From positions 333,499 through 397,498 of the forward strand of contig JBLYPV010000001.1 of assembly GCA_048538215.1 (NCBI GenBank): a stretch of DNA of 64,000 nt, given 5' to 3'. Both the position numbers and the translations under genes were made by a program. Shown piece by piece: positions 15,722 to 38,816 of the stretch. Every line of letters begins with the position of its first letter. The stretch's first letter is position 1. This DNA comes from Patescibacteria group bacterium (GTDB lineage: Bacteria; Patescibacteriota; Minisyncoccia; Phycocordibacterales; GCA-2747955). A model generated the notes under the pieces. It saw only the letters and a program-made list of their open reading frames with translations. It made no database searches and was not told where the DNA came from.

Positions 15722-16249
15722 TCAAGCATTGGCGTGCGTTTCGCCGATGCTGAGCATATTTATGGCGTCGACAATTGTCCCTCCTGTTGCCACCTCATAG
15801 ACTGCCCACCGAGCTTGCACGAAAAATTCATCTACCCGATGAACATATTCCTCTATGTGATCATAGATTTCATGCACGGATCCGGTGGCCAAGAAGGTAA
15901 AACTGAGCAAGAAATAACACTCACCACTCTCCTCTTCTCGACTGAAATACAGCGTCCCAGGAGGAAATAATGTACCATGTATTATATTGGAGAGAGTGAG
16001 AAGCGAGATAAAAATCTTTGAATCAATCTTCCCGAGACTTGTTCGAAAAAGATAGGTGAGCTCATCATGATTGACCTCTACACAATTAAAGTCGTAGGTG
16101 CCCATACCTCCTCCGCCTACCTCAATTTCGCTCGACACCACGACCCCACCTCCATTTATTTGATACACTGAAGGCTTGCATCCCATCTCCTTGAGAACGA
16201 GGTGGACCATCTCCATATGTTGGTTGTCTTCAAACAATGAAGCACTCAT
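15722..16249 (-). CDS. hypothetical protein (175 aa)
   Basis: Intact ORF, glycine-rich central segment, no recognised family. Confidence 0.5.
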   Translation of the reverse strand: MSASLFEDNQHMEMVHLVLKEMGCKPSVYQINGGGVVVSSEIEVGGGGMGTYDFNCVEVNHDELTYLFRTSLGKIDSKIFISLLTLSNIIHGTLFPPGTLYFSREEESGECYFLLSFTFLATGSVHEIYDHIEEYVHRVDEFFVQARWAVYEVATGGTIVDAINMLSIGETHANA

Positions 16250-29698: not shown

Positions 29699-30265
29699 TT
29701 GGTAATTGACCTATCAAGGGAGGCCTGGATGCTTGCTCATCTCAAAAAATACGCTCGAATTTCCCCCGCTTTCACCGTACGCGGTAATAGCAATGGATAT
29801 CTCGAGGATTTCTATGCTCACCATATCGGTGAATTTAATGTCGAGCCGATATATACCAATTGTCTCTCAAGAAAATCGGCTCGGCGCTATATTACCGAAA
29901 TTCCTCGTGAGGAGTGGCGGATCCTGCACTGGAAACAAACATGGAAGGAGATTTATACCAGTATATTTGATCCATGGGATAATTTGTATGCCTTTCTTTG
30001 CCCCTATGTATTCTTCTCACATCTTCGATACCTGATTAATCGGAGTGTCCATGATCCACATAGCGCCCTCTCTCTTCCTCTTGGCTACGACTGCGACTAC
30101 GTACAAGCTTTTCTCAAGCTTGATGGAATGGAGCCCGTGCAAGTTTGTATAAGCGGTGACTTCCGTATTCCCAAGTGGCAAATAGACCTCAGAAGCTGGG
30201 ATGGGCACCCCACGATCTGGCGCGAACGTGATAGGATTCTGATCCCTGCACTTAGGGGAGGCTGA
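29699..30265 (+). CDS. hypothetical protein (188 aa, Trp-rich)
   Basis: Intact ORF followed by a strong terminator. Confidence 0.5.
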   Translation: MVIDLSREAWMLAHLKKYARISPAFTVRGNSNGYLEDFYAHHIGEFNVEPIYTNCLSRKSARRYITEIPREEWRILHWKQTWKEIYTSIFDPWDNLYAFLCPYVFFSHLRYLINRSVHDPHSALSLPLGYDCDYVQAFLKLDGMEPVQVCISGDFRIPKWQIDLRSWDGHPTIWRERDRILIPALRGG

Positions 30266-33756: not shown

Positions 33757-33846
33757 GGAGAGATGGCTGAGCGGCTTAAGGCGCACGCTTGGAAAGCGTG
33801 TGAGGGTTTACGCCCTCCGCGGGTTCGAATCCCGCTCTCTCCGCCA
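33757..33846 (+). tRNA. tRNA-Ser (anticodon GGA), long variable arm, CCA encoded
   Basis: Acceptor stem ggagaga/tctctcc, anticodon loop 'ttGGAaa', T-arm 'gggttcgaatccc', 90 nt. Confidence 0.9.
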
Positions 33847-34336
33847 TTTTACGATTTTGTCGGTTTTGGAAGTTTTACGCACCTGCGGTGCGATTGCCTC
33901 GCCCGCAGGCGAGGCTGAAGGGGCTGATTTTGCAACGATTTGCCACGCTCTGCGTGGCGAAAAAGAAATGTTTTGGTTTTGGATTTGGAAGTTCGAACCA
34001 ATCTTTTTTAGAAAATCCCGAATCCCTTCGGGATTTTCTTTGGAAGCGATAATTTTGGCTTGTTTGCTGTCTTTTATGAATTTCTCGGCGAGTTCGAAAG
34101 ATTTTGTTACACTTAGGTTGTAAAATTCGGATAAAAACGAGTTATGTGCAATTCAAAAAATATTTTTCTTGATGTAAAAAGGAGATAGGCTTTCTAGGAA
34201 TGGGAATAAATTTGATTTTTTCTTTATTTAAAGAGGGGGATAATATTGTGTTTTCTCCGCTCCGCTCCGAAAACGATTTATTTATAAATTGAAAAACATA
34301 ACAAAACTTATATAATACAAATAACTTTTACTTTTT

Positions 34337-35131
34337 ATGGGAAACAATATGACACTAATAGATACAAAATACTTCAAAGAGTATAGAGAAAAACTTGGTT
34401 TTACAAACCAAAATGGAGTTAAGGCATTTTTTGCTGCAAGAGATATAATTCCAACAGTAGATTATAATTATATAAATTTGCTAAATGACAGACTTCTTGA
34501 AATTGTCGCAAAAATAAATGATTTAGTTGTTGAAGATATAAAAGTAGAAGATTTAGATTTGTTTTGTGATGAAAACATTAAAACCGTTTTTGAAAAATTA
34601 AAAAATCACAACATCATTTCAAGACTAAATAATCAAGGAAGAAGACCAGAAGAAGTTTATTTTTCATGGATGCGTGGTTTTGTTATTTCATCATATTTTT
34701 TAAATGCTTTAAGTCAAGTTTTTGAAGTTGATATAGAAAATATTGATTTAATCGGAGATGACGATTTAGTAAATATTGAAACTTTCAAAAGAACACCAAA
34801 AGCAGATTTACAAATTAATTTAAAAAATGGTGAAAAAGTTAGAATTGAAGTTCAGTCAGGATTTCAAGGAATTAACGACATTAAACAGCATAAAGTTTTG
34901 GAAGCTAAAAAAATCAAAAGAGAAGAAAACATTTCTTCAATGGTAATTCATTTTGATTTATTTAATGGTCAAGTTGCTTTCGTAAAAATAGATAAAATTG
35001 ACGATGATAGTGTTAATTGGATAACAAGACAACAAATGGAAGGTCAAACTGTTTTTAATATAGACCAAAATTATTTTGCTTGGAAACTAACTGAAAATCC
35101 ACCTAAATATACAGATTTATCTTTTTCATAA
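34337..35131 (+). CDS. putative Type II restriction endonuclease (partner of the downstream C5-MTase)
   Basis: 264-aa ORF 10 bp upstream of a C5-MTase on the same strand, with the same low-GC codon usage. It contains a possible PD-(D/E)xK-like segment 'PKADLQINL...RIEVQSG'. No family confirmed. Confidence 0.4.
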   Translation: MGNNMTLIDTKYFKEYREKLGFTNQNGVKAFFAARDIIPTVDYNYINLLNDRLLEIVAKINDLVVEDIKVEDLDLFCDENIKTVFEKLKNHNIISRLNNQGRRPEEVYFSWMRGFVISSYFLNALSQVFEVDIENIDLIGDDDLVNIETFKRTPKADLQINLKNGEKVRIEVQSGFQGINDIKQHKVLEAKKIKREENISSMVIHFDLFNGQVAFVKIDKIDDDSVNWITRQQMEGQTVFNIDQNYFAWKLTENPPKYTDLSFS

Positions 35132-35140
35132 GGTATAATT

Positions 35141-36259
35141 ATGGCTAAAAAAATTAAAATTATAGACTTATTTGCAGGAGTTGGAGGATTAAGTTATGGC
35201 TTTGCTCATGACGATAATTTTGAAATTGTTGCAGCAAATGAAATTTTGCCGAATATGGCAAAAGCATACGAACTAAACCATCCGTCTGTAAAAGTATATT
35301 GCAAAGATATTAAAGAATTTGGAATTAAAGATTTAGAAAAAGATTTTGGAATTAAAAAAGGAGATGTTGATTTAATTGTTGGGGGTCCTCCTTGTCAAGC
35401 ATATTCAACAGTTGGCAAAAGACTGATAGATGATCCAAAAGGTAAATTGTTTCAAGAATATTACAGAATTCTTAAAGAATTAGACCCGAAAGTATTTTTA
35501 TTTGAAAATGTAAAAGGACTTTTATCGATGCAGGGTGGAGAATTGTTAAAAACAATTATTTCTTTGTTTGAATCATTAGGATATAAAGTTGTCTATAAGG
35601 TTTTAAATTCTGCTGATTATGGAGCACCACAAGTAAGAGAAAGAGTTATAATAATTGGAACAAAACTTAACTCTAAATTTAATTATCCTGAATCAACACA
35701 TTATAATCCAGAAGAAGAGCAAACTCTTTTGACACAAGAATTAAAACCATATTTAACTTTGGCAGAAGCAATAAGCGATCTTCCATTTATTAAAAGTAGT
35801 GAAGAAAGTTTTGAGTATTCTACTGAACCAGCAAATGAATTTCAAAAATTAATGAGAAAAAATGCTCCTGAAAAATTAATGGATCATAATGCTCCAAATA
35901 ATAATGAAAACTTAGTGAAGATTATGGAAAATCTGCCTGATGGCGGAACTCCAAAGGATTTACCAGAAGAATTAAGACCAAAAAGTGGTTTTGCAAATAC
36001 TTACTGTAGGCTTTGGTGGAATAGACCAAGTACAACAATTACAAGAAATTTAAGCACTCCTTCATCTTCAAGATGTATTCATCCGAAAGCACCAAGACCA
36101 CTAACGACAAGAGAAGGAGCAAGAATACAATGTTTTCCTGATAATTATGTTTTCTATGGTTCAAGAAGTGATAAAAATTTACAAATTGGAAATGCAGTAC
36201 CGACATTTTTATCAAGTGCTTTAAAAGATTCAATTAAGAAACATTTTTTAGAAGAATAA
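35141..36259 (+). CDS. dcm: DNA (cytosine-5)-methyltransferase
   Basis: Motif I 'DLFAGVGG', motif IV 'GGPPCQAYS', motif VI 'ENVKGL', and the C-terminal 'QIGNAVP'. Confidence 0.9.
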   Translation: MAKKIKIIDLFAGVGGLSYGFAHDDNFEIVAANEILPNMAKAYELNHPSVKVYCKDIKEFGIKDLEKDFGIKKGDVDLIVGGPPCQAYSTVGKRLIDDPKGKLFQEYYRILKELDPKVFLFENVKGLLSMQGGELLKTIISLFESLGYKVVYKVLNSADYGAPQVRERVIIIGTKLNSKFNYPESTHYNPEEEQTLLTQELKPYLTLAEAISDLPFIKSSEESFEYSTEPANEFQKLMRKNAPEKLMDHNAPNNNENLVKIMENLPDGGTPKDLPEELRPKSGFANTYCRLWWNRPSTTITRNLSTPSSSRCIHPKAPRPLTTREGARIQCFPDNYVFYGSRSDKNLQIGNAVPTFLSSALKDSIKKHFLEE

Positions 36260-36529
36260 GGAGTTTTGAAAAATGAAATACAATAATACAAAGCCCACCA
36301 AAAACGGAATAATATTGATAAATTTTTCAAAAATACGCAAGGCACATTGCACTCTCACTCCGCTATCGCTCCGTTCGGCTCGCCTAACACAGTATATGCG
36401 GTTCACTCGTTGCACTTCGCTCTCCCATATTTTGCTCCGTTTCACTCCGCAAAACATCGCATATACTGAAACGTTGTTCGCAATTGATAGGAAACAAAAA
36501 TTTATAAACAAAATAAAATATAAAATCTT

Positions 36530-36706
36530 ATGAAGCAAAAAAATCAAAATTTAATTGGAATTATAAGTGCAATTACTTCAGGAATTGCTTTTTTAGCAAT
36601 AAAATATCTTTTTTCTGGAGAAATTGATTTTTTAACTTCAATTATATTTATGTTAACTTTTGGAACTACCTATATTTTGTTACATAAATTTTTTGGTAAA
36701 AAGTGA
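36530..36706 (+). CDS. 58-aa two-TM small membrane peptide (holin/toxin-like)
   Basis: ATG...TGA ORF below the track cutoff. 'NLIGIISAITSGIAFLAIKYLF' and 'FLTSIIFMLTFGTTYILL' are hydrophobic helices. Confidence 0.35.
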   Translation: MKQKNQNLIGIISAITSGIAFLAIKYLFSGEIDFLTSIIFMLTFGTTYILLHKFFGKK

Positions 36707-36826
36707 TTTTGTTTCCTATCAACTTCTTCGGAGTTTTTCCAAAACTCCTCGACCACGCTGCGCTCTCCTCCTTTCAGTCGTCGGGGCGTATAACATGGAA
36801 TAAAAGAACAGCTTGGAATAGACGAG

Positions 36827-38062
36827 GTGGATGAAAATTTAGATTTACCAGAAGGCAAAGAACACGATGATGACAAAAAAAAGCATGGTGGAAAAGAAGA
36901 TCAACATAACGACATCTTAAAAAAAGAGGATTTAGCAAAGAAAGGAGGCGGAGATAAAAAAGACGGAGAAACTGGTGAGGGAGATAAAGGAAAGCCAAGC
37001 GAGGGTAAGTGAAAAGATGGAGAAGCTGGACACGGAGAGGGAGAAAAAGGCGAAGCAGGTAAAGGTAAAGGTGATAAGGGAGAGGCTGGCGCAGGAAAAG
37101 GAGACAAAGGTGAACCCTCTGGCATGGGACAGGGCGGAAAAGAGGGCATGGAAAATAAAGACGAAACAGGGTTACCTCCTGAATCCGCAGAAGCCGAACA
37201 AAAAAAAGTAAGCCAGGAAGGATTTTTAGTGGGCGGAGGCAAGAGCAAGTCAATCTATGCCGAACGAGTACAAAATTCCCTCATTACACACGAAGGAGAA
37301 AGCTTAACAAAAAAGGATATTGAAGAAAGAGAAAAAAGAGTTGAAAAAGTTGATCGTCGCGAGCGTTATGAAGCACGACCAGACAAAGCAAGTATGCGTG
37401 AGGTTATTAGGAGCTTACGCAGAATCATTACTGATGTATCAGAAGTCAAAAGTAGTGATGTTGATCTAAAAAGAACAGTCAAAAACTTTGCTCGTCGTGA
37501 TTTTTGATTTGACTATGAACGCGAAAGAGAAAAACAACCTGAGGTGGTTTTACTTATTGATGTAGGTGGGCCAGTAGATGAATGGAGTCCGCTAATGAAA
37601 GAAGTTGCCGAGGAAATGGCAAAAGGTCTAACGAAACTTGAAGTTTACTTATTCCATAATAATCTCTATGGATATGTATGGAAACCAGACCCAAAAGATT
37701 TACTTGCCTCTAGTTATGCAAAACCAAATTCGTTGATTGATATAAAAAAGGTAATTAAAAAGAGAAAGAAAGTAATTGTATATGGCGACGCGGAAATGTC
37801 ATACTCTGAATTTGAAGGTGACGGCTGGCCTCCAAGTGGCAACGACGAAAGAGTAGAAAAGTTTGGGATGGGTGGCGATGAGTGTTTAAATTTCATTAAG
37901 AAAAAAGCAGACTCGGTTGTGTGGATCAATCCTGTGTTTGCAAAAGAGTGGGAAGAAAGGGATGACTCGGGAACAATTGGAGCGATTAGTGAGATTGTGC
38001 CGATGCATGATCTAACTGTAGGTGGTGTGGAGGATGCAATTAAGGAGCTGATGAAGAAATAA
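36827..38062 (+). pseudogene. VWA-like (CoxE-type) domain protein with N-terminal Gly/Lys/Glu low-complexity region. One frame is interrupted by two in-frame TGA codons (37010-37012 and 37505-37507). It is either a pseudogene or a TGA-sense gene.
   Basis: Track ORFs 36827..37012, 37124..37507 and 37544..38062 all share frame 2 and are separated only by TGA. The C-terminal 'VVLLIDVGGP...LEVYLFHNNLYGYVW...VIVYGDAEM' resembles a VWA/CoxE fold. Confidence 0.55.
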
Positions 38063-38237
38063 AGGGAGCTTCCGCTTGCGCGCGCATGGGTGGGTTGGGG
38101 CAAGCGCATATAGATTTACTTGTGACATTCGGACATTCGCTAGGGTGGCGGAAAGTGCTCGTGGTGTAATATAGGCTCAAATGAAAGCCTTAAATGGGTA
38201 GAGAGACTTGAATTTGTGGAGAAAAACCTTGGGGCTT

Positions 38238-38816
38238 TCATCTATCAAAAATTTTTTCAATAGTAGACTCAATATACATTCCCACTCCGTGCGCAATTTC
38301 CGCCCACGCCATTGCCAATGCTAGAAATATAAGACTCTCCCCTGGTACCCCCTGATACTCCAAGCCCAAAGATGCTATTTGTGATTGAACAATATTGCCA
38401 CCAAACAAAGCAAGAGCAAAAAGTGACACTAGTAGATACTGCGCATCATTGATCATCTCTATATAAAATAGCTTTATACGCCCTCGATAGGCAGCGAGAG
38501 CGCTATCAAATCCAGCAAAGCCGATAATCCAGCCGATAGCTGTATAAAACCATAAGCTCTCTTGATAGCCAAAATATATTATCGCTGCGCCAATGATAGT
38601 CATCACAAATCCTAGCATAATCACTCCTCCCCTATTCATCCCCCAACGCATAATAGCTCCCTGCAAAATCATTCGGAGAATCCGTGCTGCCAAAATACCA
38701 TACACCCAAGTAAGGAGAATGCTAATCATCACTGGTGAAACCACCGTAGGAAATATCCATAGCAGGGTGAGTGCTGTAGCGATAACAAAGGTCGTACTGT
38801 CAATATATCGACTCAT
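38238..38816 (-). CDS. hypothetical integral membrane protein (192 aa)
   Basis: 5-6 TM helices. Confidence 0.5.
   Translation of the reverse strand: MSRYIDSTTFVIATALTLLWIFPTVVSPVMISILLTWVYGILAARILRMILQGAIMRWGMNRGGVIMLGFVMTIIGAAIIYFGYQESLWFYTAIGWIIGFAGFDSALAAYRGRIKLFYIEMINDAQYLLVSLFALALFGGNIVQSQIASLGLEYQGVPGESLIFLALAMAWAEIAHGVGMYIESTIEKIFDR

Follow-up and report, generated by a model that had tools for sequence, protein, structure and literature searches.

NorQ/NorD (PMC9976466), CoxD/CoxE (PMC4240915) and RavA/ViaA (PMC3893208) are pairs of a MoxR-class ATPase and a VWA protein, and such MoxR-class AAA+ ATPase/VWA pairs, among them also CbbQ-CbbO, are the closest known systems to the protein family studied here. 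The family differs from them in several respects: its match to VWA_CoxE is sub-threshold, the DxSxS motif is replaced by D-V-G-G-P, a linker of variable length is present and the helical N-terminal domain is unmatched. The copy found in the window (the whole 64,000-nucleotide stretch of a Patescibacteria genome that was analysed) departs further from the known pairs, having neither an ATPase nor an N-terminal domain, and the system appears to be dead. As in bacterial pseudogenes that result from insertion or deletion of mobile DNA combined with nonsense mutations, it is truncated at the 5' end by an acquired cassette, its operon partner is lost and nonsense point mutations have hit codons (GGA, CGA) that a single change turns into a stop; unlike in such pseudogenes, there are no frameshifts yet, both stops are TGA and the insert consists of a restriction-modification (R-M) cassette and a tiny ORF-bearing element rather than a classical IS element. 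The two in-frame TGAs also call for comparison with code 25 (UGA=Gly; Gracilibacteria, Absconditabacteria). One of them does sit where relatives have Gly, but the other lies where Arg is conserved, GGA and CGA are the codons found in relatives, and none of the homologues comes from a code-25 lineage. We propose that the locus is, very probably, a native and recently inactivated pseudogene of a Patescibacteria-specific VWA (CoxE-like) protein, produced by an operon replacement and two nonsense mutations.

A query built from the interrupted frame retrieved 38 homologous proteins of 480-593 aa and, because these match with E-values down to 8e-168, the frame is a coding sequence and not a chance opening. 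The homologous loci are metagenome-assembled Patescibacteria labelled Falkowbacteria, Uhrbacteria, Spechtbacteria, Paceibacterota, Saccharibacteria or Nanosyncoccus (16 GTDB species loci), and these lineages use code 11; a few of the bins carry a Gammaproteobacteria label, and none of the labelled loci is assigned to Gracilibacteria or Absconditabacteria. An AAA_5 (MoxR-class) ATPase gene lies just upstream of the VWA gene in every locus that reaches that far. It encodes 493-564 aa and ends 2-5 nt before the VWA start (L001, L003-L006, L023 and L038), its product scores 28-30 bits against the Pfam model in intact relatives (cut-off 22) and it is itself usually preceded by a small ORF of 51-58 aa. 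The description of the protein as VWA/CoxE-like, given in the earlier note, stands at the level of the fold, the family having the Rossmann-like alpha/beta fold of VWA domains, but Pfam support is weak: the intact homologue P0005 matches VWA_CoxE (PF05762) with 19.1 bits, below the gathering score of 26.4. This model matches 13 of 24 family members at E<0.01 (best 7.6e-6), precomputed matches exist for P0013 and P0019, and a Pfam search with the window fragments themselves gave no match to it. In place of the canonical MIDAS metal-binding motif DxSxS, the sequence D-V-G-G-P(-V-D) is invariant in the family, and it reads IDVGGPVDEW in the window (37556-37576). A linker rich in Gly, Lys and Glu, of 36-114 residues across relatives, occupies 36950-37230, and the helical N-terminal domain lies at model residues ~60-150; neither part has a match in Pfam or PDB. 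On the basis of the AAA_5 adjacency and the sub-threshold VWA_CoxE match, the family is regarded as a putative VWA partner of a MoxR-type chaperone. Contigs end within or near the VWA gene in four of the 16 genome loci (L014, L015, L016 and L022), and the linker repeat may break assemblies.

In the window, a single plus-strand frame spans 36794-38062 when TGA is read as sense. It is limited upstream by an in-frame TAA (36791-93) and ends with a TAA at 38060-62; by an arithmetic estimate, a 422-codon run without TAA or TAG has a chance probability of ~1e-8 at 41% GC. The earlier note had placed the ORFs 36827..37012, 37124..37507 and 37544..38062 in a common frame interrupted by two TGAs only, with no TAA, TAG or frameshift. 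Both statements were confirmed by translating 36827-38062, which yields 412 codons with the two TGAs listed in Table 1 as the only internal stops. Sequence inspection revealed no convincing ribosome-binding site ahead of 36827, 37124 or 37544, and a promoter search of the plus strand found no sigma-70-like site between 36268 and 36830. When the separate fragments were compared with Pfam and NCBIfam, nothing matched except for a weak hit to NCBIfam SAV_2336_NTERM (30 bits against a cut-off of 200).

Table 1. Features of the locus, in window coordinates.
Feature	Position	Strand	Basis or remark
tRNA-Ser (GGA), native left landmark	33757..33846	+	tRNA search, Rfam
Native upstream segment with terminator-like hairpin	33987..34108	+	81% identical to L003 5620-5743
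Putative Type II R-M cassette, horizontally acquired	34142..36267	+	Low GC, homologous copies elsewhere
Putative restriction endonuclease (REase)	34337/34349-35131	+	NCBI name 'restriction endonuclease', MFW0871210.1
C5-cytosine methyltransferase (MTase)	35141-36259	+	PF00145 E=5.5e-79; MTase_II E=5e-107
Filler, no convincing gene	36268..36472	+	Unique in window and fetched loci
Mini-element, ~323-334 nt, right end of replacement	36473..36806	+	Copies in four other contigs
In-frame TAA closing the frame upstream	36791..36793	+	Conserved mini-element end (GCGTATAACA)
5'-truncated VWA_CoxE-like remnant, probable pseudogene	36799..38062	+	tblastn; L038 alignment
First in-frame TGA, from Gly codon GGA (G>T)	37010..37012	+	Relatives' codons; Gly/Lys/Glu-rich linker
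Second in-frame TGA, from Arg codon CGA (C>T transition at CpG)	37505..37507	+	Relatives' codons
Native 3' flank of VWA gene	38063..38131	+	93% match to L025 just past stop; L038 alignment to 38131

The frame is the 3' part of a longer gene and amounts to two-thirds of the usual family length. In tblastn comparisons, full-length homologues match the window only from residue ~168 on, starting at 36799, and the N-terminal ~167-170 residues, the ATPase and the small ORF have no match at E<=1 anywhere in the 64-kb window. The closest intact relative, L038, was retrieved by means of a DNA pattern that included the second TGA. It aligns to 36799-38131 with 83% nucleotide and 89.5% amino acid identity, so that the remnant corresponds to residues ~168-590 of its intact 590-aa protein, and the alignment stops exactly at 36799, upstream of which the VWA N-terminus and the ATPase gene are both complete in L038. 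The ancestral arrangement to the left can be read from L003, where a tRNA-Ser is followed by a segment resembling 33987-34108 and then by the operon of small ORF, AAA_5 and VWA genes. Between the same flanks, L003 holds a ~2.8 kb operon and the window ~2.7 kb of other DNA, the left junction of the replacement lying within 34109-34141. The GC content of the remnant is host-like. A comparison of the flanks and of the whole window with Rfam returned two tRNAs only. In another relative (L022) the match starts near the same residue, but a shared breakpoint was rejected: the contig end cuts this match and another query extends it to residue 123.

It is the R-M cassette, and not the VWA gene, that is foreign to this locus. 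The cassette stands where the small ORF, the AAA_5 gene and the 5' end of the VWA gene have been lost, has a GC content of 26-30% against ~41% for the host, and recurs with 91% nucleotide identity in L029 (5012-7127) and L030 (1123-3238) and with 83% in L026 (5202-7111), in each case in an unrelated gene neighbourhood. Its putative REase of 260-264 aa, which has no match among Pfam, NCBIfam, PADLOC or PDB models, always travels with the MTase in the loci compared; the PDB relatives of the MTase (HaeIII, HhaI and DNMT1) are recognised via the catalytic core only. A strong promoter-like site at 34289-34316 lies on the same strand as the remnant.

The mini-element at the right end carries an ORF (36530-36706) for a two-helix, hydrophobic protein of 58 aa, annotated by NCBI as a hypothetical protein (MFW0871212.1). 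A perfect 16-nt inverted repeat (36484-36499 / 36707-36722) brackets this ORF, and after it comes a GC-rich tail that includes an 8-bp hairpin. Copies that are 95-97.5% identical are found in L034 (4-358), L035 (3327-3689), L036 (93-415) and L037 (184-537), with flanks that differ among these contigs, and in L035 the copy adjoins a DpnI-like gene and an integrase. The mini-element may be a small mobile or cassette-associated module. It is also the source of the TAA that closes the frame upstream, which is not a product of VWA gene decay. The junction between mini-element and VWA gene lies at 36797-36806, within a 7-nt microhomology (ATAAAAG), as expected for illegitimate recombination, and no convincing repeats, direct or inverted, were found at the ends of the 2.7-kb insert as a whole.

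For both TGAs the ancestral codon can be read directly from relatives: it is GGA at the first site and CGA at the second. At the first site, relatives that share the repeat ...PSEGK[G]K.GEAG... all have a Gly codon: GGA in L008, L024 and L038, GGT in L007, GGC in L025. At the second, cgtgattttCGAtttgactat in L023 corresponds to cgtgattttTGAtttgactat in the window; CGA is found in L023 and L038, within a 21-nt context that is otherwise identical to that of the window. The protein alignment shows Arg at this position in 26/36 homologues, Lys in 3 and Gly in none, and at the DNA level 21/23 loci have an Arg codon; the distant relative L013 has Gly (GGC). Each TGA is one base change away from the sense codon of L038. 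Because the first site is Gly and the second is Arg, no single recoding explains both TGAs. The earlier note had remarked that the repeat is extended when the first TGA is read as Gly: Gly does fit there, but the cause is an ancestral GGA and not a variant code, and of the two TGA positions at which it had proposed to look for Gly in homologues, only the first has Gly. The second has Arg, an outcome that the note itself had named as refuting code 25. An in-frame TGA within the VWA gene occurs in none of 25 homologous loci, and 24 of these have no in-frame stop at all, the exception being L025 with a single stop, a TAA near its 5' contig end. Selenocysteine is excluded, since homologues have Gly and Arg, never Cys, at the UGA positions. 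Deamination of a cytosine methylated by the neighbouring MTase was considered as the cause of the CGA>TGA change and set aside as unsupported, TCGA being not notably avoided (O/E 0.88) and nothing tying the site to the MTase.

The host reads TGA as stop, as the earlier note had stated. Read with table 11, the window is filled with long ORFs, and reading TGA as sense merges ORFs at the VWA locus only. Among the stops of 69 non-overlapping ORFs of at least 70 aa, TAA accounts for 48, TAG for 17 and TGA for 4; one of the four TGA-ended ORFs is an antisense artefact inside the remnant, leaving 3 genuine cases among ~66, namely 15722-16249 (-), 29699-30265 (+) and 38238-38816 (-). The last of these is in NCBI exactly as a 192-aa protein. 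Extending 15722-16249 past its TGA was rejected as a case of sense reading, the 69-codon extension having a non-coding-like composition, and the other two extend by only 1 and 16 codons. No in-frame TGA is found in the ~65 other genes of the window, and no tRNA with anticodon UCA in its 64 kb of the 622-kb genome, where the only tRNAs are tRNA-Ser(GGA) and tRNA-Leu(TAG). TGA stops are rare in the window for a genome of 41% GC.

The inactivation is likely recent because the remnant keeps 98 of 101 conserved residues (53/54 invariant and 45/47 near-invariant, no worse than intact members) and its dN/dS is ~0.05 (0.054 against L038, with dS ~1.1). Pairwise dN/dS values against the relatives range from 0.03 to 0.07, but dS is saturated against all of them except L038 and the ratio was discarded as a dating tool. 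When the comparison is rooted with L023, 12 private amino acid changes fall on the window branch and 5 on the L038 branch, for similar numbers of nucleotide changes (62 and 55 respectively). This difference is not significant; at most, the sequence comparison hints at relaxed constraint on the window branch, and the excess of amino acid changes fits a very recent inactivation. Two nonsense hits correspond to an estimated 2-3% of neutral change (216 nonsense paths among 3789 possible single changes), which is compatible with the counts on the branches. Given the codon content of the remnant, TGA makes up ~25-29% of one-step nonsense mutations and the probability that both hits are TGA is ~0.07. 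The absence of frameshifts beside two nonsense hits is slightly unexpected for free drift, and neither this nor the coincidence of two TGAs is strong enough to need a special mechanism.

The sequence of events was probably the following. The replacement would have removed ~2.8 kb, made up of the small ORF, all of the ATPase gene and ~167 codons from the start of the VWA gene, and put in ~2.7 kb of foreign DNA: the low-GC REase and m5C-MTase cassette, the filler and the mini-element of ~330 nt. Its right junction was probably formed through the 7-nt microhomology, by illegitimate recombination. The 3' remnant, promoterless and partnerless, would then have drifted, or may already have been drifting, and would have gained two independent single-base nonsense mutations, GGA->TGA (Gly) and CGA->TGA (Arg). 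The anatomy of the locus, the ancestral codons and the foreign nature of the cassette are direct observations. The earlier note had left the choice between a pseudogene decayed by two independent TGA mutations and a TGA-sense (code 25-type) gene of foreign origin. The former is upheld: the ~167 N-terminal codons and the AAA_5 neighbour are gone, and L038 has GGA and CGA, each one base from TGA. The latter is contradicted by the Arg at the second site, the code-11 relatives, the host-like GC and the conserved 3' flank.

What, then, could be said for a horizontally transferred gene whose TGAs are ancestral sense codons, the donor being a phage or a lineage in which TGA means Gly (code 25) or Trp (code 4)? 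Every relative that shares the repeat has Gly opposite the first TGA, and the distant L013 has Gly at the second site. However, no close relative has Gly there, where Arg prevails in 26 of the 36 proteins and 21 of the 23 loci, the nearest relatives carry GGA and CGA and not TGA, none of the 25 loci has an in-frame TGA, no labelled locus is from Gracilibacteria or Absconditabacteria, the GC content of the remnant is that of the host and its flanks are native, and the gene is truncated under any code; we therefore give this origin almost no credence. A technical cause deserves slightly more attention, the source being a metagenome-assembled genome: the TGAs might be consensus or base-calling errors (e.g. 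systematic ones near modified bases), in which case the truncation would be the gene's only interruption, or the junction might be mis-assembled. The second site, a C>T change at a CpG in a T-rich context near an m5C methyltransferase gene, would suit base-calling errors. Yet two stop-creating substitutions in 1.26 kb without indel errors would be unusual, TCGA shows no notable avoidance (O/E 0.88) and nothing connects the site with the methyltransferase. Both ancestral flanks surround the insert in the right order and orientation, which speaks for a real replacement and against a chimera, and the microhomology at the mini-element/VWA junction is typical of illegitimate recombination. Errors of either kind are, in our judgement, very unlikely.

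The remnant might also still be expressed, from a GTG start at 36827, through read-through transcription of the R-M operon and leaky or programmed readthrough of the TGAs, or by translation of 37544-38062 alone as a VWA domain. The frame is otherwise intact with its conserved residues kept, TGA is a rare stop in the window, the promoter-like site at 34289-34316 drives the same strand, and the ~0.07 chance that both stops would be TGA could be taken to favour such expression. Against this, the constant ATPase partner of the family and the helical N-terminal domain are both gone, Gly and Arg rather than Cys in the homologues exclude selenocysteine, no convincing ribosome-binding site stands before any of the three possible starts, no promoter-like site precedes the remnant and recency, with dS 1.1 to the nearest relative, fully accounts for the conservation. 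We consider that continued expression is highly improbable. It is even harder to believe that the lineage, in whose window only 3 of ~66 genes end in TGA, terminates poorly at UGA, tolerating the TGAs as leaky codons, and that an N-terminally truncated VWA protein is made from R-M operon read-through transcripts. If so, the locus would capture a code-11 genome of the Patescibacteria (candidate phyla radiation) on its way to reassigning UGA.

Taking the locus as a decayed native gene, what it chiefly offers is a negative result: in-frame TGAs readily suggest a variant code when met in a genome of the candidate phyla, and here the close relatives reveal plain decay. Nothing at the locus needs a variant code, and it leaves the understanding of genetic codes and of VWA/MoxR systems unchanged. 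It is also a tidy case of a reduced genome in which a defence (R-M) cassette has taken the place of a host operon. For annotation, the three ORF fragments should become one pseudogene. The NCBI numbering skips from MFW0871212.1/ACKKL4_02035 (the 58-aa ORF) to MFW0871217.1/ACKKL4_02060 (the 192-aa ORF) across window positions 36707-38237; from the numbering only, this suggests that four separate CDS were annotated across the remnant instead of one pseudogene. Guessed sequences of these annotated fragments were not found in the protein collection.

Several minor observations concern the relatives and the cassette. L025, which has 87% amino acid identity and a 3' flank matching that of the window, shows an aberrant 5' end (...HNPL*KRRGGN..., with an in-frame TAG and TAA, L025 1-60), and the EDLAKK segment that immediately precedes the repeat is apparently deleted from it. 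L025 may be another copy that has decayed independently, or the contig end may have produced an artefact. The non-coding DNA on either side of the cassette (34255-34270 and 36345-36460) contains clusters of short GC-rich motifs (CTCCGC, CACTCCGC), and similar ones flank the mini-element in L035, a signal that was set aside as too weak to interpret. Across the window, 4-bp palindromes are strongly avoided (O/E: ACGT 0.40, CATG 0.58, GATC 0.61, GGCC 0.66, CTAG 0.67), which is consistent with past or present restriction pressure, and the palindrome statistics of the window assign none of them to the local MTase. The R-M cassette is widespread, its clusters at 90% identity counting 81 members for the MTase and 42 for the REase. 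The REase gene of L029 and L030 is broken into ORFs of 117 and 154 aa, which suggests that the REase has decayed in these contigs and left an orphan MTase.
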